Part shown: piece by piece, positions 29,144 to 39,284 of the stretch
Layout: each line of letters starts with the position of its first letter
How positions within the stretch are numbered: position 1 is the stretch's first letter
Assembly (NCBI GenBank): GCA_963717465.1
Contig: OY970340.1
Span: 448,001 to 512,000, forward strand
DNA length: 64,000 bases
Reading direction: 5' to 3'
Source of the DNA: Candidatus Bathyarchaeota archaeon
GTDB lineage: Archaea > Thermoproteota > Bathyarchaeia > Bathyarchaeales > Bathycorpusculaceae
The notes under the pieces: model-generated
Seen by the model: only the letters and a program-made list of their open reading frames with translations
Told to the model about the DNA's origin: nothing
Database searches by the model: none
Translations under genes and position numbers: made by a program

Positions 29144-30247
29144 CTATAAAAGCCCTAAAAGTGTTTTTCCAATAAACGTTATTTGTTCATCGGTGACTCC
29201 TGGATGAATCGGCAGAGAGAACACTTCTTTTGAAGCTTTTTCAGTGCATGGAAGTTTGCGACTAACAAAGTTTTCCTTGTAAAACGGCATCTGATGGACA
29301 GGGTTAATGTAGTAAACTTCAGCGCTTATGCCTTTGTTGTGCAGTTCATCAACTATTTTGTTGCGTTCTGCTTCAGTGCCATCCTTTAGTCGGACAGTGT
29401 ACAGGTACCAGCTATGCAACTGATTCTTCGATTCGGAAGGCAGTTGAAGTCAACTGTTTTTGCACAGGATTTTTGTTAATTGTTCTGCGTTTTGTCGGCG
29501 TTTGGCAGCAAAGGAGGGCAACTTTTCCAGTTGCACGATGCCTATGGCAGCTTGAATTTCAGACATGCGGTAATTGTTTCCCAGCATCATTGATGAATAC
29601 TTGGCTTTTTCACCATGAGTTCTAATCATCTTTAAAGTTTCAGCTACCGCATCATTGTCTGTAGTGATGACTCCGCCCTCGCCGGTAGTAATGTTCTTGC
29701 TTGCATACAGACTCCAGCATGCGACATCGGAAAACTTGCCAGCGGGTTTTCCATTGTAAGTTGCACCGTGAGCCTGCGCTGCATCCTCAATCAAAGCCAG
29801 ACCATGTTTAGAAGCGATCTCTCGAAGGGGTTTCATATCAGCACTATACCCATAAAGATCCACAGGTAATATTGCCTTAGTTTTCTTGGTTAACGCTTTT
29901 TCCACTGCTTCTGGAGAAAGATTGAAGGTTTCAGAGTCTATATCGGTGAATACGGGTTTTCCTCCAGCTAAGATAACTGCTTCTGCTGTTGCTACAAAAG
30001 TGAAGCTTGGCAATACTACTTCATCGCCCTGCTTTACACCCATAGCTGCAACGGCAGAATGCAAGGCAGCGGTTCCAGTGTTCATTGCTATGGCATGTTT
30101 AACGCTCGCGAACTTGGCATAGTTGCGTTCGAATTCGGTGACCATTGGCCCCGCTCCAAGTCCGCTTGTTAACATTCCGCTTCTTAGAACTTTAACAACT
30201 GCTTGAACTTCTTCTTCTCCGATTTTGGGCAAATTAATTGGAATCAA
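29144..30247 (-). CDS. DegT/DnrJ/EryC1/StrS PLP aminotransferase (in-frame TGA at 29450-29452)
   Basis: TGTAALH, EDAAQAHG, SKNITTGEGG, NYRMSE and SLPIHP. The two ORFs are in one frame across a TGA. Confidence 0.88.
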
Positions 30248-30694
30248 CCGACTAACCTCTTTAGGGGTAAAATATTGTCGTCTCAAGTTATATTCATTTT
30301 CTTAAGATAAGTAAAATTTAGCCTTGCTAAGAAAAAACTGCAAGATGAAATTCATAAATCTTATTCTTATACCGACTTGAAATAGCACAACAACATAAGT
30401 TGGAATAACACCATAGTATTCAGTCTAACAATCTCACCCACAAGCGTCTCTGCAACTATTAGCCGATACATGCACACCAGCAGCAACAATGAAGTGACTT
30501 TTAACTTCGTCGGCACAACATCAGGTTCATAAATAACAAATTCAAATGCCAATGGTCCTCCGGTAAATGGATAAGCTACATTATTTATCTTTAAACTGTT
30601 AGGTAATACAAATTTTCCATAACAAGTATTTACAGCTAATCAGGCTCAGCACTAAGCATTCAAGTTCCATCGACAATTACTCTAACGTCATTGC

Positions 30695-30713
30695 ATTAAA
30701 AAAGAAAAAAGGG
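30695..30713 (-). terminator. Oligo-T archaeal terminator after the oxidoreductase gene
   Basis: Minus strand CCCTTTTTTCTTTTTT about 20 nt after the TAG at 30731. Confidence 0.6.
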
Positions 30714-30730
30714 AATTGTTGTGGGGTCGG

Positions 30731-33034
30731 CTAGGAAATGTTCGCTGAGTACACTTTTGCAAGGTTTACTTTGAAGCACCAAGCTCCAAGTTCTGGACTT
30801 AGCTGTTCAGGGTCGTCTGGGATTGTTTGATTGATGTTCCAATCTAGCCATCCGTGAAGACTTGGCTCTTCACCTGGTAGCTCAGGACGCCACCAACTGT
30901 GCTCAGGATCAATAACTTTTGGATTATGACCAAAGTCATATCTTACTGTCTGTCTGCATCTACCAACGGGAGTTTCGATGTAAACCCATTCACCATCTCC
31001 AATACCCATGTTGCGCGCTGTCAAAGGATGCATCTTCACACGCGGAACAGGACGCAAATGCCTCATTAAACTAATATGCCGTAGCTCAGCATGGTGTGCT
31101 TCTTGGAATCTGGCACCACTAGTCATGATTAAAGGGTAGTCCTTGGCTATATCAGGAGCGCTGATTGGCGTCCACGCATTCTCCACATAATACGGCAACG
31201 GATTGTACTCAAGCTCCTCCAGAATGGTTGAGTAGAACGCAACCTTGCCCTCAGGAGTACCAAAACCAACCGCCTCTCCCGTCTCCGAATCGAGCTCCGC
31301 ATACTTCTTGAACCTTGGCTCCCATGGCGGCACACCCCTCCATTCCTCATTAACTTGCTTACGCGTCCAGCCAGTTGGCTCATAGAAATAGTCCTGAAAT
31401 TCCTCCAAACTCTTCCAAGTCCAGGCTTTATCAACTCTTTCCTTACCAACCACGGCAACCGCAAGATCGCGATATATCAGTGCGTCATCTCTTAGATCCC
31501 ACAGTCCAGGTATTTTCTCAGGCAATGCACGATCACCAGCAATCTCAAACTCAATATTCCCCTGACATGAAACAGTCGCGTAGCCAGAAGGCCTCTCAAA
31601 TTGACTGGTGCCAGGCAGCACATAATCTGCAATCATAGCCTCAGGAGTCATCTGAGCACATTCAATGTACACGAAGAGTTCAAGCTTCTTTATGCCCTCA
31701 TAAGCCTTTTTGATATTTGGATAACCTCTCATCGGACCTACTTCACCGCAAATCATCGCCTTGATCGGATATGGTTTCTCAGTTATCATTGCATCTATTA
31801 GGTCAGGGAAAACTGGAGCTAATGGTCCAGCGCTTCCAGGGCCCTTCCAATATCCTCTAGCCATGCTTGCCATACCAATGGCGCCACCACCGGGAACAGT
31901 CAGCATTTTATATTTGTCCGAACCTATCTGTTTCATCATGAAACTTGGATCGGACTCCATAAGAATATTTGTAAACGCTTCACTTCCCGTGCGGAATTTT
32001 GGTTTTGCGTGTAAGTATTCGCCGCCTTCTATGTCGATGTTGCCTGTTAGCGCTGGTAGCATATATTTGGATCGCACATTACTCATGGAGTTCCTGCCTG
32101 ATGATTCAATTGCGTAGCCGTATGGGAACGTGCATGGACGGTTTTTCACTATGAATCTGGCTGCTTCTCTAATCTTTTCAGCTGGAATCCAAGTTATTTC
32201 CGCAGCCTTCTCAGGCGTATACTGCTTAACACGTTCCTTTAGCTTATCAAATCCAAAGGTCCATTTCTCCACAAACTCATGATCGTACAAATCCTCCTCG
32301 ATGAGGACATTCATCATAGCCAGCATAAGAGCGGTATCAGTTCCAGGCCTAATCGCCAACCATAATTCAGAATTTCTAACAGTTTCAGTATAGCGTGGAT
32401 CGACGCAGAGCATTTTCGCGCCACCCTCGACTGCTGCAACAAAGCCAGGCCATGAATATGTCCAAGATTCACTGGGATTCGTTCCAATCGCAAAGATACC
32501 TTTGGTCTTACCAGGAATCATCATTGCATATGTTAATCCCACGCCATAGCCTAATCCTAAGGCTTGGTACGTGGGTCCAGCTCAGTGTGTCGCTGCAACA
32601 GGCCCAAAGTTAGGGCTGCCCAATAACACATGGAAAGGCGCACAGCCAAGACCTAGGTTAGCAGATCGACCAGTGCCGCTAATGCCGCATACAGATTCGG
32701 CGCCATACTTTGCTACAATTTCCTTTACTTTAGCAGCAATTTCCGAAATAGCTTGATCCCACGATATTATTTGCCACTTCCCTTCACCTCGTTTGCCAAT
32801 ACGCTTCAACGGATACATGGGTCTGTCTCTATGGTAGATGTACTCTACAGAGTACTTCCACTTCTGACAATAAGGCCCAGGATTAAACGGACTTTCCCAA
32901 TCAGGCTCAACTTTAGTGATTTTACCGTTCTCAACAGTCTCAAGCAATTGACATGATCCAGTACTACAGAAACCGCAAATACATCTATGCAATCCATCGT
33001 ATTTCTTCGGGTCTTCAATTTTAGTTTCACTCAT
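30731..33034 (-). CDS. Mo/W-bis-PGD oxidoreductase, acetylene hydratase-like, candidate selenoprotein (U151), 767 aa
   Basis: [4Fe-4S] motif CGFC.TGSC...C, YPLKR..RGEGKW..ISWDQA, RPGTDTAL, DYVLPG..FER and C-terminal HP..A...GI.DG motif. ORFs 32582..33070 and 30731..32542 share a frame, separated only by TGA at 32582-32584. GGAGA precedes ATG 33034. Confidence 0.88.
32538..32575 (-). promoter_or_regulatory. Candidate bacterial-type SECIS hairpin 6 nt 3' of the in-frame UGA
   Basis: mRNA UGA-GCUGGA-CCCACG-UA-CCA-AGCCU-UAGGAUU-AGGCU-A-UGG-CGUGGG: 14 Watson-Crick pairs, G-containing apical loop about 23-25 nt from UGA. Folded by hand. Confidence 0.65.
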
Positions 33035-33115
33035 TTTTCTATCTCCTATTACTTTATGTCTTTGAAACAAGTTAATATTAAGGTCTGTTTAATATTTAAG
33101 GTTAAAATATGAGCC

Positions 33116-33134
33116 TGTTTCAGATTTTGAGACA
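33116..33134. promoter_or_regulatory. Imperfect palindrome (candidate operator) upstream of the oxidoreductase TATA box
   Basis: TGTTTCA-GATTT-TGAGACA; extra half-site TGAAACA at 33063; minus-strand CTTAAATA at 33093-33100. Confidence 0.4.
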
Positions 33135-33372
33135 AAATAAGGCAAATCTGCTAATTTAGTTGCCACAGGTGCGGTTTTGACCCTATTTTTGATAAAAAAG
33201 TGCAAAGTCTAAAACTCAATTTAATAAAAGTAATAAGAATTGGAACAAATTTCCATGATGGAGAATTAAGAGGCCTGAATTATTTTCTTAAACGAAACTT
33301 TTTCAAGATTAAATAGTAACAAGTTCAGTAAGTTTTAGGTTTTCCAAATAGCAATAATGTTGTGTATCAATT

Positions 33373-33978
33373 TTAAGCGTCAACAGGCGTTATTTTCTTC
33401 GTAAATGTATTATTTTCTATGTGATTCACTGGTTTAGCCGATTGAAATATTGATCCCAAGTTTCGATATGAAAATGGTTTTGGCCACATTTTATCCGTGT
33501 GAAACATGAAGCTATGTACTTCAAGGGATGGTAATTTATGCAAAAGCGATAATTCTTTATCAACCATCTTTGAGAACTTTATAAAATCATCATAATCCTT
33601 GTGAGCAGTTACAGCGAACCATTGTGTTCCTGTCATGCCGCGATCTACGAGGAGGCACAGCAATTCGGGATGGCTGTGAGCCACTTCATCAGCTTCGCTA
33701 AATTGCATTGGTGTTACTATATCAGTAGTTGAAGCTAACGAAAGCACAACAACCTCTAGCCCAATTTTATAGAAATCAGGTACTGGAACGTATTCTTTTA
33801 TGTAGCCCTCTTGTTCAAGCTTCTTTTTTCTTCGAGACAAAGATGTGTGGCTTATTCCCAAACGTTTGGCAATTTCTCTATCGCTATTACCGCTTAATGC
33901 CATCAAAGTAAACAAAGTTTTTAGATTTTCTTGTTCCTTTCTCTCCAGTGCATTTCGTTTACTCAATGGTCTATTCAT
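33373..33978 (-). CDS. Lrp/AsnC family regulator
   Basis: SDREIAKRLGISHTSLSRRKKKLEQEGYIKEY.P.PDF.KIG. Confidence 0.85.
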   Translation of the reverse strand: MNRPLSKRNALERKEQENLKTLFTLMALSGNSDREIAKRLGISHTSLSRRKKKLEQEGYIKEYVPVPDFYKIGLEVVVLSLASTTDIVTPMQFSEADEVAHSHPELLCLLVDRGMTGTQWFAVTAHKDYDDFIKFSKMVDKELSLLHKLPSLEVHSFMFHTDKMWPKPFSYRNLGSIFQSAKPVNHIENNTFTKKITPVDA

Positions 33979-35640: not shown

Positions 35641-37314
35641 TTATTTTTGACTGAAGATTTCGTGCGCTTGGTAATTGTGCGCAAGAGTAAGTATTCCTCC
35701 TGACACGTTCTTAGCTTTGAATCCATTTTGCACAAGTATCCTCGTAGCCATATAGGAACGTTGACCTGAACGACAAAAAACGTTAATTTCCTTATCATGC
35801 GGAAGTTCGTTTAAACGTGATCGTAATTGACCCAGCGGTATGTTGACGGCGCCAGGGACACTTTCCACCGCAAGTTCAGCTGGTTCACGCACATCTAAGA
35901 GAAAGCCCTTAGTTGAATCCCATTGGCTAAGCGGCGAATCCCCTCTAAGTATGTTACTTGCAACCATGCCTGCAAAATTGACAGGGTCCTTTGGGCTTCC
36001 ATACTGGGGGGCATAGCAAAGCTCGGCTTCTTCAAGATCATAGACTGTAGCACCCATCTGAATCATAACGGAAAGAATATCAATGCGCTTGTCTACGCCA
36101 TCTTCACCAATCGCCAACGCGCCCAGAAGTCGCCCATCCGACCTTCTGAATATAATACTGATCGCTAAAGGCTTGGCACCTGGATAGTATCCCGCATGCG
36201 AGTTTGGGTAAAGGTAAATTTTTTCGTAATCAGTTTCACCCATTTGCTGCAGAGTCTTTTCATTGACACCAGTCCACGCTATCGTTGCACCAAATAAACC
36301 GATAACCGATGTCCCTTGCGAGCTGCGGAAACAAGAGTCACGTCCAGCGATAATGTCAGCCGCTATACGACCTTGACGGTTAGCGGAACCTGCCAAAGGA
36401 ATATATGACCATTGGCCGGTCACAAAATCTTTCACCTCAACCACGTCGCCTACGGCAAAAATATCAGGATCGCTTGTACGCATATGTTCATCAACACGAA
36501 TGCCGCCATGCTCACCGATTTTAAGTCCAGCACTTTTCGCCAAAGTAATGTCAGGTCTAACTCCGAGAGCAAGAATGACTAGGTCAGCAACATAAATTTT
36601 CCCTGATTTGGTTTCAACATTAATGCGCTCGCCGTCAGTCTGCTTAAACCCTGCTATACCATCGCCAAGAGCAAGACGGATACCCTGCTTCTTCAGATAC
36701 GCCTCAACTACTCGTGCATGCCCAACGTCTATCTGGGGCAGTATCTGGTCAAGCATTTCTACAAGCGTTACTTCAAAACCTCGGTGAACCAGATTTTCAA
36801 CCATTTCCAAACCGATGAACCCGCCACCGACAACAACAGCACTGGCTTTTGATTTTTCCGTTTGGATTCCGACTCGTTCTATCCATTCACGAATAGCCCT
36901 ACCATCCTGAATTGTCCTTACATGAAAAATCCCCGGCAAATCTATTCCTCTTAGAGGAGGATGAACAGCAGTTGCGCCTGGTGACAATACTAGTTTATCA
37001 TAGGATTGCGTGGACACTTGACCAGTCTCTAAATCCTTGAGCTTTACGATTTTTTCTTTTCGTAAAATCTCTACTGCTTCACAACGGGTGCGCACATCAA
37101 TCGCTAACCTATTTCGAAAATAATGCTCGCTTACAACCAAAAGACTCGATTCTTTATCAATTACGCCACCAACATAATAAGGCAGCCCGCAGTTAGCGTA
37201 CGAAACAAACGGTCCGCGTTCCACCATGAGAATTTCAGCTTTTTCATCCAACCTGCGCAGGCGTGCAGCACAAGATGCCCCGCCAGCTACTCCACCAATT
37301 ATAACAACCTTCAA
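35641..37314 (-). CDS. CoA-disulfide/persulfide reductase with C-terminal rhodanese domain (CoADR-RHD/Npsr-like)
   Basis: GGVAGG, SYANCGLPY, GGGFIGLE, LCYAPQY and rhodanese CRSGQRS. TTG start at 37314 after GAAGGTG. Confidence 0.9.
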   Translation of the reverse strand: MKVVIIGGVAGGASCAARLRRLDEKAEILMVERGPFVSYANCGLPYYVGGVIDKESSLLVVSEHYFRNRLAIDVRTRCEAVEILRKEKIVKLKDLETGQVSTQSYDKLVLSPGATAVHPPLRGIDLPGIFHVRTIQDGRAIREWIERVGIQTEKSKASAVVVGGGFIGLEMVENLVHRGFEVTLVEMLDQILPQIDVGHARVVEAYLKKQGIRLALGDGIAGFKQTDGERINVETKSGKIYVADLVILALGVRPDITLAKSAGLKIGEHGGIRVDEHMRTSDPDIFAVGDVVEVKDFVTGQWSYIPLAGSANRQGRIAADIIAGRDSCFRSSQGTSVIGLFGATIAWTGVNEKTLQQMGETDYEKIYLYPNSHAGYYPGAKPLAISIIFRRSDGRLLGALAIGEDGVDKRIDILSVMIQMGATVYDLEEAELCYAPQYGSPKDPVNFAGMVASNILRGDSPLSQWDSTKGFLLDVREPAELAVESVPGAVNIPLGQLRSRLNELPHDKEINVFCRSGQRSYMATRILVQNGFKAKNVSGGILTLAHNYQAHEIFSQK

Positions 37315-37340
37315 TTCATACACCTTCAGAGATTTATGTA

Positions 37341-37811
37341 TCAACTTTTTTTTCTTAAAGTTTGAACCTGCCATTTGGGCGAAAGTTTTATTGCTTCAAT
37401 CACTGCGTGGCTTTCAATTCGGCTTATGCCTTCAATCCCCGATATGGTAGACATCAATTTTAAAGCGTCATTCTTATTTCGGCATAATGCTAAAACCAGC
37501 AAATCACATTCACCAGTGACTCTGGAGACAATTGAGATTTCGTCATACGAGGACAGCAATTGACCGATCTGTGAAATATCGACTCCTGGCTTTATTGAAA
37601 TCTGCAAACACAGCGGGTACAAATCGAACTCTTCTGGATTTAGAACCACAGTATACCCCATAATGGCACCATTTTTTTCCATTAACTCAATCCTGCTAGC
37701 TACATTTGCATGACTAATTCCAAGTTGCCGGGCAATTTCACGGTAAGAAAGACGAGCATCTCCCGAAAGCAGTTCTAAGATTTTCCTATCAGTATCGTCC
37801 AAAACCTTCAC
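37341..37811 (-). CDS. Lrp/AsnC family regulator
   Basis: LDDTDRKIL..L..DAR.SYREIA and VTGECD. Confidence 0.9.
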   Translation of the reverse strand: MKVLDDTDRKILELLSGDARLSYREIARQLGISHANVASRIELMEKNGAIMGYTVVLNPEEFDLYPLCLQISIKPGVDISQIGQLLSSYDEISIVSRVTGECDLLVLALCRNKNDALKLMSTISGIEGISRIESHAVIEAIKLSPKWQVQTLRKKS

Positions 37812-37819
37812 CCATTATG

Positions 37820-38137
37820 TTATACGTTAACTACACGCTGATCATCCTGCGCTAGAAAATCTACAAGCTGATCATAATCAAGCAATTCCACGCCAGCTAT
37901 CAAGTTTTTAGTTATTCCTCGTTTTTGGGCATCTTTGAATATTAAATAAAGTTTTAATCCAGATTGAATAGCTTTTTCAACATTCGAATTGCTTTCATTT
38001 TTATTAGCTACCATATAAACGGCGTCTTGACTTAACACAGCACTTATTTCCTCGTTTTTCGCTTGCATTTCTAACGCGATTTTCAAGAACGATAAGTCGA
38101 ACCTGTTTAAAAATAGTACAGTCTTCATGTCATCCAC
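37820..38137 (-). CDS. DsrH/TusB family protein
   Basis: QDAVY...DAQKRG...DYDQLVD pattern. Confidence 0.8.
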   Translation of the reverse strand: MDDMKTVLFLNRFDLSFLKIALEMQAKNEEISAVLSQDAVYMVANKNESNSNVEKAIQSGLKLYLIFKDAQKRGITKNLIAGVELLDYDQLVDFLAQDDQRVVNV

Positions 38138-38476
38138 CTAAAACACCAATGTTACTTGTGCTTCGCCAAGAAGCTCAGATATTTTGGTCTCATTGGCAAC
38201 TGTTATGCCTGCCACAAGATTATCAGCGGTAAATCCTCTTTTCCTTAACGCTTCCTCCTCGACAAAAAGGGTGACGCCTGCATCGGGAAGTTCTGAAAAA
38301 TATCGACTTGTCAAGCTTGTATCAACATCCTTCAGGATAGCATACACGGCATCGTCCATCCAGATGAAAGTAACTTGATGTTCCCACAAGCCCGCGGCAG
38401 TACGTAAGGCTTCATAGTAGTTGATTGTCGAGAAAGGCTTTGATTTTAACATTACACAGACTTTCTTTCCAGGCAC
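38138..38476 (-). CDS. DsrF/TusC family protein
   Basis: PF....EALR.A, DDAVY and EEEAL.KRG. Confidence 0.8.
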   Translation of the reverse strand: MPGKKVCVMLKSKPFSTINYYEALRTAAGLWEHQVTFIWMDDAVYAILKDVDTSLTSRYFSELPDAGVTLFVEEEALRKRGFTADNLVAGITVANETKISELLGEAQVTLVF

Positions 38477-38480
38477 GCTT

Positions 38481-38846
38481 TCACCTTCCAGTAAAACTTA
38501 AAACAATGTCTGATTCAGCAATCATTTCAGAGAGGTCAAAAATTCCTCCAGCGACAATTCCTTCAGGATACATTGCTTCATTAACACCTCTTAACTCCAT
38601 GCAAACCCTGCAACATACAATTTTTGCACCCTGTCTAAGCAGGTTTTTAAACCTATCAGAGACCGATGTCATGTTGAAAGGTACCCCATTTTGATATTTA
38701 ACAGGGTTATACACACCATCCATCATCATGAAAATGTTAACCTTATGTCCTTTTTTCAGGGCTGATTCCGCTATTTCAACGACTTGTTCGGGACTTTCAT
38801 GCTCAAAGGGTGGTTCGCAAAGAAAAAATAAAAAAGTTTTGGGCAA
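38481..38846 (-). CDS. DsrE/TusD family protein
   Basis: A.SALKKGH.V.IF..DGVY and CCRVCMELRG (active Cys). Confidence 0.85.
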   Translation of the reverse strand: MPKTFLFFLCEPPFEHESPEQVVEIAESALKKGHKVNIFMMMDGVYNPVKYQNGVPFNMTSVSDRFKNLLRQGAKIVCCRVCMELRGVNEAMYPEGIVAGGIFDLSEMIAESDIVLSFTGR

Positions 38847-38861
38847 AATGTCTTTCTCCTT

Positions 38862-39284
38862 TTAGATGAACAAGTTGACGTCTGATTTTAATGCAAGTTC
38901 CATGAATGTTGCAGCGCCTACTATATCGTCAACTTCTGGAATCAGATCTTCTTTCTTAACATGCATTATCTCCATCGTTGTGCTGCAAGCGTATAGTTTG
39001 ACGTTTCCTGTCTCCTTGCACATTTGAAGCATCTGAGTGAGTGTAGGAACCTTGGCTTTTGCCATTCGCCCCTTTATCATGCCTGTTGCAATCCTCATCA
39101 TTCCAGGTAGTTTTGCCTTGTCAAAGCCGCCCTTTTTGATAGCACTAAGTCCCCAAAATGTAAAGAAAAGATGCACTTTTGTGTCCATCGCTGCTGCTGT
39201 ACTGGCCAACATAAAGACAGGCATTAATTTGTCAAGAGTGCCAGAGTGCACTATGATTGCCATACTTTTATTTTCATCGACCAT
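38862..39284 (-). CDS. DsrE2-like (DsrE/DsrF/DrsH-like) protein
   Basis: SGTLDK...ASTAAAM..VHLFFTFWGL, YACSTTME and VGAATF. Confidence 0.88.
   Translation of the reverse strand: MVDENKSMAIIVHSGTLDKLMPVFMLASTAAAMDTKVHLFFTFWGLSAIKKGGFDKAKLPGMMRIATGMIKGRMAKAKVPTLTQMLQMCKETGNVKLYACSTTMEIMHVKKEDLIPEVDDIVGAATFMELALKSDVNLFI

Follow-up and report, generated by a model that had tools for sequence, protein, structure and literature searches.

A predicted selenocysteine ligand and a hairpin within the reading frame in an acetylene hydratase-like gene family of a Bathyarchaeon

The 64,000-nucleotide (nt) stretch of Candidatus Bathyarchaeota DNA analyzed here (the window; contig OY970340.1, positions 448,001 to 512,000) carries on its minus strand, at positions 30731-33034, one intact gene that public annotation has divided in two. 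This gene encodes a 767-amino acid (aa) protein related to acetylene hydratase. Its only internal stop, a TGA at codon 151, is very probably a selenocysteine (Sec, U) codon at the position of a tungsten (W) or molybdenum (Mo) ligand, with the insertion of selenium predicted from the comparisons below. Six nt downstream of the TGA is a conserved hairpin that lies inside the open reading frame (ORF). A farther-reaching interpretation, to which we assign a probability of about 0.6, is that Bathyarchaeia with a PSTK-aSelB fusion use a third mode of Sec recoding: archaeal/eukaryal machinery would be combined with an ORF hairpin at a fixed distance of 6 nt, convergent with bacteria and read by something other than the winged-helix tail of bacterial SelB (perhaps the fusion protein, the ribosome or another factor), and the metal ligand would have been converted to Sec in a family of eleven regulator-paired copies.

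The gene, its protein family and codon 151

The features of the coding sequence on which the identification depends are as follows:

30731-33034, minus strand: complete predicted selenoprotein gene, 767 aa, including the stop codon TAG (translation, Pfam, alignment with 2e7z)
32867-32983, minus strand: N-terminal [4Fe-4S] motif C18, C20-x2-C23-S-T-G-S-C28 ... C56 (PF04879 residues 19-68, column conservation, paralogue alignment)
32582-32584, minus strand: UGA codon 151, read as Sec, the predicted sixth ligand of W/Mo-bis(pyranopterin guanine dinucleotide) (homologue column, 2e7z, genomic copies)

Two minus-strand ORFs in a single frame, 30731-32542 (603 aa) and 32582-33070 (162 aa), are separated by the TGA, around which the codons read ...ACA CAC TGA GCT GGA CCC.... 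When this TGA is translated as U, the frame from 33034 to 30734 gives one 767-residue product that ends at TAG 30731-30733 and in which U151 is the sole internal stop (context ...LLGSPNFGPVAATH-U-AGPTYQ...); the peptide across residue 151 reads ...AATH-U-AGPTYQALGLGYGVGLTYAMMIPGK. Translation thus bears out the original prediction, made from the letters of this DNA, that the two ORFs share a frame and are joined by read-through. Public gene calls cut the gene into P0245 (150 aa) and P0122/P0002 (596-597 aa).

Three Pfam domains were found in the protein, all over their cut-offs: Molybdop_Fe4S4 (PF04879, residues 19-68, 31 bits), Molybdopterin (PF00384, residues 74-524, 96 bits) and Molydop_binding (PF01568, residues 638-740, 39.8 bits). 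This domain order is that of the MopB or dimethyl sulfoxide (DMSO) reductase superfamily. The best solved relative is acetylene hydratase (PDB 2e7z, E-value: 7.8e-110, residues 18-755 aligned), followed by polysulfide/thiosulfate reductase (2vpw, E-value: 8.7e-56), while the formate dehydrogenases in PDB align with the N-terminal ~320 residues only. No NCBIfam equivalog was reached by the 767-aa protein. PhsA/PsrA (thiosulfate/polysulfide reductase) was considered and rejected, as NF012032 scored 251.7 bits where 694 are required and there is no twin-arginine translocation (Tat) leader, the Fe-S motif starting already at residue 18. The enzyme is accordingly placed among predicted cytoplasmic proteins. 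The alpha subunit of formate dehydrogenase was likewise rejected (TIGR01591, 243.1 bits against 666.25; TIGR01553, 109 against 814.2). The selenoprotein motif of formate dehydrogenases and FwdB is U-H-x-P; the target has U-A-G-P, and because no His follows the Sec, the enzyme should not be a formate dehydrogenase.

In the alignment with 2e7z, U151 falls opposite the Cys at chain index 138, which, with a 3-residue offset judged from the Fe-S cysteines, would be the W ligand Cys141. A MAFFT alignment with 110 full-length homologues (P0012-P0121, ~37-44% identity to the target) has Cys in the U151 column in 109 sequences and Asp in one. The TGA had been predicted to occupy the codon of the metal-ligand Cys, and a check of this column for Cys or Sec had been proposed; both the solved relative and the homologues agree with that placement, as do the genomic copies described below, all 11 of which have TGA. 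We consider it highly likely that the protein is a single-subunit, cytoplasmic [4Fe-4S] and W/Mo-bis-pyranopterin enzyme of the acetylene hydratase branch of the superfamily.

The target shares with acetylene hydratase of Pelobacter/Syntrophotalea acetylenicus (2e7z, EC 4.2.1.112) its domain order, its cytoplasmic location, the N-terminal [4Fe-4S] motif and the loop that runs from GSPN to the ligand. However, the W ligand of acetylene hydratase is a Cys thiolate, whereas the target codon is UGA, predicted to be Sec, in 11/11 copies; the Fe-S spacing of the target is C-x2-C-x4-C, and overall identity is moderate. A further difference concerns the residue that follows the second Fe-S cysteine, which is Asp in acetylene hydratase and Ser or Gly in the target family. 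Ser24 of the target aligns with this Asp, and the position is occupied by Ser in seven and Gly in one of the eight intact Sec-type copies and mostly by His (69/110) in the ~40%-identical family. Asp13 of acetylene hydratase is reportedly the catalytic Asp that hydrates acetylene; because the catalytic Asp is missing, the enzyme is unlikely to be acetylene hydratase proper. Acetylene hydratase is a non-redox enzyme, and to our knowledge a Sec ligand is otherwise known from redox enzymes only.

The Sec-containing FdhA, FdhF, FdnG and FwdB proteins belong to the same superfamily and bind Mo/W through a Sec at the equivalent position, but their U-H-x-P motif differs from U-A-G-P and the target belongs to a different branch. 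In the available parts of two published accounts (PMC13188914, Table 1; PMC10100899), the only Mo/W selenoproteins listed are formate dehydrogenases and FwdB. Within what is available of PMC13188914, Table 1 gives FdhA and FwdB (UHxP); neither "acetylene" nor "DMSO" appears, and "molybdopterin" appears a single time, for MoeB. A literature search combining acetylene hydratase, selenocysteine and archaea, judged by title and abstract, found no such enzyme. Neither a Sec ligand in the acetylene hydratase branch nor a conserved hairpin inside such an ORF was found in print.

The genome is a single contig (C1) of 3,053,889 bp with a G+C content of 40.1%. When it was searched with tblastn, 11 copies with TGA in the U151 column were recovered; besides the target, nine of them are 73-80% identical to it and one is 44% identical. 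No other stop interrupts the aligned segment of any of the 11, in keeping with the earlier argument that a chance stop is unlikely to fall on the ligand codon. A twelfth, distant copy (C1:1817834-1820023, plus strand, 33% identity) has TGT at this position and is therefore Cys-type, with an acetylene hydratase-like loop. This loop (LLGSPNWMS-GLSMCMGNT) is much nearer to that of acetylene hydratase, and the Cys-type paralogue and the most divergent Sec-type copy (C1:1822105-1824357) are close neighbours, the former lying ~2 kb upstream.

Of the 11 copies, eight are intact. The other three are frameshifted by single-base insertions that do not fall in homopolymers, which suggests genuine decay of the genes rather than a fault of assembly. 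The target copy is intact and has no frameshift, as the original prediction had stated; the accompanying statement that the window is full of indels was checked in part, and stands to the extent that a DegT ORF at 29450-30286 is truncated and that the three frameshifted copies occur elsewhere in the genome. This ORF (minus strand) is of the DegT/DnrJ aminotransferase type, covers profile positions 2-255 of 360 and appears to be shifted in frame further downstream, which is compatible with the remark on indels. An isolated 137-residue C-terminal fragment (C1:1076144-1076551, minus strand, 88% identical to the target) is a further sign of gene birth and death.

Public fragments break at the same place. 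The ten closest public proteins (65-97% identity) are 442-607 aa in length, cover 58-78% of the query and begin at the first Met that follows the hairpin. Among the close public N-terminal fragments (139-172 aa), 14/15 end at the residue before the TGA, and nine of these 14 come from other assemblies. The 20 codons from the UGA to the next Met are nevertheless conserved and align without gaps with acetylene hydratase. Contigs of four independent metagenome runs aligned to the region, with depth highest over the bins of the hairpin, and in two runs the contigs reach position 32584, after which their reverse complement encodes PNFGSVAAQT, a pre-UGA context of the paralogue type. No change at 32582-32584 was seen in the metagenome contigs among the matches listed. 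Seven sequencing runs share small parts (≤0.10) of the stretch, and none of the seven listed is an RNA run holding it. A metagenome pattern scan gave no family members (0/80 fetched loci, among the matches listed); in one chance match of high GC, a TGA stood in register.

Sec machinery of the genome

The genome carries a complete archaeal-type Sec system, in which two components are duplicated:

C1:845693-845779, plus strand, and C1:2829638-2829725, minus strand: tRNA-Sec copies 1 and 2, which differ at few positions
C1:952706-954937, plus strand, and C1:2827363-2829555, minus strand: PSTK-aSelB fusion genes (SelB 272.7 vs 201.7 bits, the second lower)

Both tRNA-Sec(UCA) genes exceed the Rfam cut-off of 47 bits (71.8 and 61.8), are also called by ARAGORN and fold with a long D-stem and a 4-bp T-stem. 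SepSecS (488.9 bits) adjoins tRNA-Sec copy 1. SelD (240 bits, C1:951672-952679) has an in-frame TGA of its own at 951702-951704 (...VHG-U-SCK..., a U-x-x-K context). Directly downstream of SelD is a 744-codon frame with a PSTK match in its first third and SelB after it; the second PSTK-aSelB ORF, 730 aa in length, is found beside tRNA-Sec copy 2. Both fusions contain the Pfam domains KTI12/PSTK, GTP_EFTU, D2 and aSelB_III. The PSTK scores (151 and 134 bits) are below the TIGR03574 cut-off of 290.5, and PSTK is part of the published fusion architecture. Nothing over 20.5 bits was found for SelA in the genome. The tungstate/molybdate uptake protein WtpA was identified at 309.7 bits. For EF-1alpha, the four named proteins among the matches listed (86-87% identity) are from Bathyarchaeia, Bathyarchaeota (twice) and Nitrososphaerota.

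Judged by these genes, the DNA is that of a Bathyarchaeon whose Sec pathway is of the archaeal/eukaryal kind. The original prediction had left a choice between a Sec-decoding TACK archaeon and a gene acquired from bacteria, and had proposed searching for selD, EFSec, tRNA-Sec(UCA) and selA versus pstK/sepSecS; because the complete archaeal-type set was found and EF-1alpha is of Bathyarchaeial type, the first alternative holds. It had also given Methanococcales, Methanopyrus and Asgard archaea as the classical users of Sec in archaea. This list was too short: Sec use and the PSTK-aSelB fusion in Bathyarchaeota have already been published (Mukai 2017, 2022; PMC5424206 and PMC8762117, as far as their available text goes). 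The genome resembles the Bathyarchaeotal Sec-encoding system of Mukai in having PSTK-aSelB as a single ORF (here in two copies), SepSecS beside tRNA-Sec, and SelD. The passages by Mukai that were compared, which extend to neither Figure 9B nor the supplementary figures, contain no SECIS (selenocysteine insertion sequence; "SECIS" occurs 0 times in PMC8762117) and no acetylene hydratase-like selenoprotein.

With two tRNA-Sec genes and two PSTK-aSelB genes, the decoders might serve different hairpin classes. In SelD, a structure of -37.3 kcal/mol over 100 nt begins ~12 nt past the UGA, and may represent another type of signal.

A hairpin inside the reading frame

Three features bear on how codon 151 would be recoded:

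32576-32581, minus strand: spacer of 6 nt from the UGA to the hairpin base (same length at HdrA U212 and MvhD U682 in five genomes)
32538-32575, minus strand: hairpin inside the ORF, candidate recoding signal (pairing, covariation, RNAalifold, synonymous constraint, fold energy)
30698-30710, minus strand: oligo-T tract TTTTTTCTTTTTT, terminator-like transcript end, starting 21 nt past the stop (flank comparison)

At the base of the hairpin is a 6-bp helix (CCCACG/CGUGGG); beyond an internal loop follows a second, upper helix (GCCU/AGGC), which is capped by an apical loop of 7 nt, UAGGAUU (32553-32559). The hairpin is present at the 6-nt spacer in 11/11 copies. In the 11-row alignment 89.0% of 154 cells pair, a value reached by 0/500 shuffles, while sliding the 3' partners gives 22.7-47.4%. 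Two-sided changes occur in 5/14 pairs (reached by 1/500 shuffles), and RNAalifold returned the same two helices. Selection is also visible at the level of codons: those of the lower helix (CCC, ACG, GGC, GTG and GGA) are invariant among the seven close intact copies, mean pairwise synonymous-codon identity at conserved residues of these seven copies is 0.83-0.85 in the hairpin compared with a gene mean of 0.57, and the 14-codon windows starting 2-3 codons past the UGA are the two highest-ranking of 382. Synonymous identity among these copies is raised again (0.75-0.81 vs 0.57) at codons about +99 to +103 past the UGA (~window 32230-32285).

Fold energies agree with this picture. In 3000 coding windows of the same genome the mean was -9.0 kcal/mol (standard deviation 3.8, first percentile -18.7); the target hairpin, at -19.9 kcal/mol, is in the lowest 0.6%, and the 60 nt past the UGA give -17.1 to -22.5 kcal/mol across the 11 copies. 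The Cys-type paralogue has -9.1 kcal/mol past its Cys codon, which is the background mean, and no hairpin. The hairpin is under selection and, if Sec is inserted, it probably serves as the recoding signal. A covariance model of it (R1), run on the genome, recovered the 11 copies used for training and no others; in sequence the hairpin is family-specific.

Hairpins at the same spacing were found in an unrelated gene:

C1:1519923-1522484: HdrA-MvhD gene with U212 (...LDCSI-U-IEGP...) and U682 (...FMCNW-U-GYAG...), by read-through

Both codons are followed by a 6-nt spacer and then by hairpins of -25.8 (HdrA U212) and -22.9 kcal/mol (MvhD U682). Orthologues of HdrA-MvhD with the same two TGAs are present in four other SepSecS-positive genomes (G217, G247, G259 and G262). 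At site 212, the five Sec-type genes from five genomes have folds of -20.7 to -27.4 kcal/mol, in contrast to -4.1 to -13.7 for ten Cys-type homologues, which code for a nearly identical peptide. The corresponding ranges at site 682 are -22.9 to -25.9 for Sec-type (n=5) and -11.5 to -20.6 kcal/mol for Cys-type genes (n=7). Across the genome, 53 long read-through candidates were considered, of which 12 have folds at or below -17.1 kcal/mol. These are exactly the homology-supported Sec sites (ten copies of the enzyme family, HdrA and MvhD), and the remaining 41 candidates are at or above -14.6 kcal/mol. HdrA-MvhD, with its Cys-type homologues, is a case of UGA aligned with Cys in another gene, for which a scan had been proposed. 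A codon-usage screen for further selenoprotein genes was too crude to be used: 4/11 known copies passed it, and SelD did not.

Several further loci may be recorded here. The HdrA homologues of genome G039 are all Cys-type and served as controls. In G217, a Sec-positive genome of the same genus, the HdrA-MvhD orthologue (G217:C5:814414-816775) is in two pieces with extra TAG/TAA stops, and its post-UGA hairpins are intact. From the frame reading alone, C1:2822987-2824229 (minus strand) is an ORF of ~410 codons via two TGAs (...VISF-U-EEPY... and ...FMMS-U-GCPMGH...), with post-UGA folds of -16.7 and -19.6 kcal/mol. Its neighbourhood includes PSTK-aSelB copy 2, tRNA-Sec copy 2 and a broken copy of the enzyme, and may be a Sec-related island. 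An EF-1alpha match in another genome of the same genus (G001:C4:135159-136469) has one internal TGA, possibly through assembly error or a frame artefact.

The hairpin shares features with the bacterial and with the euryarchaeal SECIS and differs from each. The model of the bacterial element (bSECIS; Zhang and Gladyshev, via PMC13188914) specifies a loop of 3-9 nt, an upper stem of 4-16 bp, 16-37 nt between UGA and loop, a minimum free energy of -7.5 kcal/mol or lower and a G at position 1 or 2 of the apical loop. Like a bSECIS, the target hairpin is inside the ORF directly past the UGA, with 22 nt from UGA to loop, a 7-nt loop and an upper stem of 5-8 bp; its energy in all 11 copies is under -7.5 kcal/mol, and the A-G-G-A-U core of the loop resembles N1-G-[G/U]-N-N2. 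However, a bSECIS is read by SelB with C-terminal winged-helix domains, which Pfam does not find in the PSTK-aSelB fusions, and the genome differs from the bacterial system in having no SelA over 20.5 bits and no match to a bacterial SECIS in Rfam. The likeness to the euryarchaeal SECIS comprises an upper helix with three consecutive G-C/C-G pairs in 8/11 copies, together with the archaeal-type decoding machinery. The euryarchaeal element has two helices, a GAA_A bulge and three S-S pairs and is located in the 3' untranslated region (3'-UTR), whereas the target element is inside the ORF; GAA_A is not conserved in the target family, the 5' side being GAA in 3/11 copies. In the available text of PMC13188914 and PMC8211752, archaeal SECIS are described as 3'-UTR elements, with one 5'-UTR exception, and aSelB as not binding SECIS. 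A literature search found neither a SECIS inside an archaeal ORF nor a description of a Bathyarchaeial selenoproteome.

The flanks of the gene offer no better candidate. A run of at least 5 T begins 6-31 nt past the stop in 7/8 intact copies; all copies carry an oligo-T tract close behind the stop, which leaves no space for a SECIS in the 3'-UTR. For the eight intact copies, the strongest 50-nt folds are -4.8 to -13.0 kcal/mol within 200 nt of 3' flank and -5.8 to -15.5 kcal/mol within 200 nt of 5' flank, at positions that are not conserved. No Rfam SECIS family matched the gene and its flanks (30200-33500) at E≤10, where two irrelevant weak matches were obtained, and Rfam gave no match at its gathering threshold in the whole window.

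In the mechanism that we propose, Ser-tRNA-Sec would be phosphorylated by PSTK and converted by SepSecS with selenophosphate from SelD, and aSelB, fused with PSTK in one protein, would deliver the Sec-tRNA. UGA 151 would most likely be marked in cis by the conserved hairpin in the coding sequence 6 nt downstream, so that a bacterial placement of the hairpin would be combined with a factor that lacks the RNA-binding tail of bacterial SelB. The Sec inserted would take the place of the metal-ligating cysteine.

Several observations weigh against this mechanism, or against the breadth of its support. Selenium incorporation is predicted from sequence, as are all steps above. No bacterial SelB winged-helix family was detected in either fusion (Pfam, E≤0.01), and the aSelB of methanogens is reported, in the available part of PMC8211752, not to bind SECIS RNA. 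The target loop, U-A-G-G-A-U-U, has its G at positions 3-4, outside the bSECIS rule. The UGA of SelD is followed by an average fold of only -9.2 kcal/mol in the next 60 nt. As the 11 enzyme copies are paralogues, their hairpins are not independent observations, and the number of independent sites is about six. The trait is patchy: SepSecS was found in 9/301 class-level genomes, this genome counted, and in 0/24 same-genus genomes of a first draw. MobA-like ORFs scored 67 and 51 bits, below the cut-off, and the completeness of the genome is estimated at 88%.

Some of these points would be expected if Sec is inserted but the ORF hairpin is not the recoding signal, acting instead in pausing, stability or anti-termination or being a by-product, with a SECIS that is elsewhere or unneeded. 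The departure of the hairpin from criterion (ii) of the bSECIS model, its lack of the GAA_A motif, the absence of a known SECIS-binding domain in the factor, the weak local fold at SelD and the failure of the covariance model to find a copy outside the enzyme family all fit this explanation. We nevertheless regard it as unlikely. The flanks of the eight intact copies have weak, unconserved folds and, in 7/8, T-tracts 6-31 nt past the stop; the hairpin tracks the UGA and not the peptide, Sec- and Cys-type HdrA genes being ~10 kcal/mol apart; the 6-nt spacer recurs in unrelated genes; and the hairpin separates all 12 homology-supported sites from the 41 other long candidates. It is also conceivable that the UGA is decoded as cysteine, by SepCysS acting on Sep-tRNA-Sec or by near-cognate readthrough, giving a full-length protein without selenium. 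Cross-talk between Sec and Cys is discussed for archaea with SepRS/SepCysS and without SepCysE in the available text of Mukai et al. (PMC8762117), but the same text proposes that the PSTK-aSelB fusion shields Sep-tRNA-Sec from SepCysS. As SepSecS and SelD (itself a selenoprotein by its TGA) are present and intact, and as keeping UGA and hairpin in 11 copies for the sake of Cys would have no evident benefit over TGC/TGT, the latter being used by the Cys-type paralogue, decoding as cysteine is very improbable.

Least credible is an explanation by sequencing error, by a pseudogene or by a genuinely split gene with two polypeptides, in spite of the two ORFs of the public annotation and the three frameshifted copies out of 11. 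This explanation is contradicted by the recurrence of the same TGA, as the only stop per aligned segment, in 11/11 copies and at the ends of nine fragments from other assemblies, by the gap-free conservation of the 20 codons up to the next Met relative to acetylene hydratase, and by independent metagenome contigs that reach the TGA. The lesions of the broken copies are moreover of a different kind, single-base insertions outside homopolymers. We therefore retain recoding of UGA 151 as Sec with the aid of the ORF hairpin as the preferred interpretation.

Evolution, neighbouring genes and implications

A tree of 67 rows was built from the eight intact Sec-type copies, the Cys-type paralogue and 58 Cys-type homologues, with the three broken copies and truncated database matches left out. 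All Sec-type copies in the tree group together (SH-aLRT 97) within the Cys-type family, where a Cys-type metagenomic protein is their sister (100). Seven close copies are a tight clade (100), and the copy at 44% identity is on a long branch. The simplest reading of this topology is one Cys-to-Sec switch, followed by lineage-specific expansion. The suggestion that the gene was acquired from bacteria, or is a transferred and non-decoded pseudogene, is unsupported: the Sec-type copies are nested in Cys-type homologues, 8/11 are intact and the recoding context is selected. Distant bacterial homologues in the contig search numbered five, at 27-33% identity. The enzyme was found at E≤1e-50 in none of 24 same-genus and 16 same-order genomes, and a TGA-type copy in none of 8 other Sec-positive genomes. 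Between genomes G000 and G039, identity is 55% for SepSecS and 77% for EF-1alpha, which fits vertical descent with loss or transfer alike.

No gene for an Fe-S or membrane subunit is found beside the target, which stands alone. The nearest gene of interest is a putative regulator:

33373-33978, minus strand: winged helix-turn-helix (HTH) gene (HTH_24/MarR/Lrp-like), 201 aa, 338 nt upstream (Pfam, neighbour cluster, atlas neighbours)

The cluster to which it belongs has 12 members across the loci of ten enzyme copies, and its neighbours in the protein atlas are Lrp/AsnC-type clusters from Bathyarchaeota. Because paralogues of it are found upstream of most enzyme copies, the winged-HTH protein is a probable dedicated regulator. 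Genes for flavoproteins of the Old Yellow Enzyme/enoate reductase type lie beside four copies, and two of the ~40%-identical homologues (P0085 and P0119) are fused to FAD/NAD(P) oxidoreductase domains. The presence of eleven copies, most with their own HTH regulator, suggests a set of substrate-specific, inducible cytoplasmic oxidoreductases. Further upstream in the window, a sulfur-handling cluster at 35641-39284 (minus strand) comprises a CoA-disulfide-reductase-like flavoprotein with a rhodanese domain, an AsnC regulator and three DsrE/DsrF-like genes.

If our interpretation is correct, this would be the first family of Sec-liganded Mo/W enzymes outside the formate/formylmethanofuran dehydrogenase branch. 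It would add a selenoprotein family that has been missed by catalogues and by automatic annotation, all public gene calls that were compared having split the gene in two. Sec ligation of Mo/W would be extended beyond formate and formylmethanofuran dehydrogenases, which bears on the choice of Sec over Cys at metal centres. An ORF hairpin of this kind would also challenge the rule, as given in the available text of PMC13188914 and PMC8211752, that archaeal SECIS are located in untranslated regions. With a hairpin at a fixed spacer inside the ORF and an aSelB without a known RNA-binding tail, the archaeal SECIS reader becomes testable with defined parts. Finally, the selenoproteomes of these archaea, which are widespread in sediment and peat, would escape search programs tuned to 3'-UTR SECIS.

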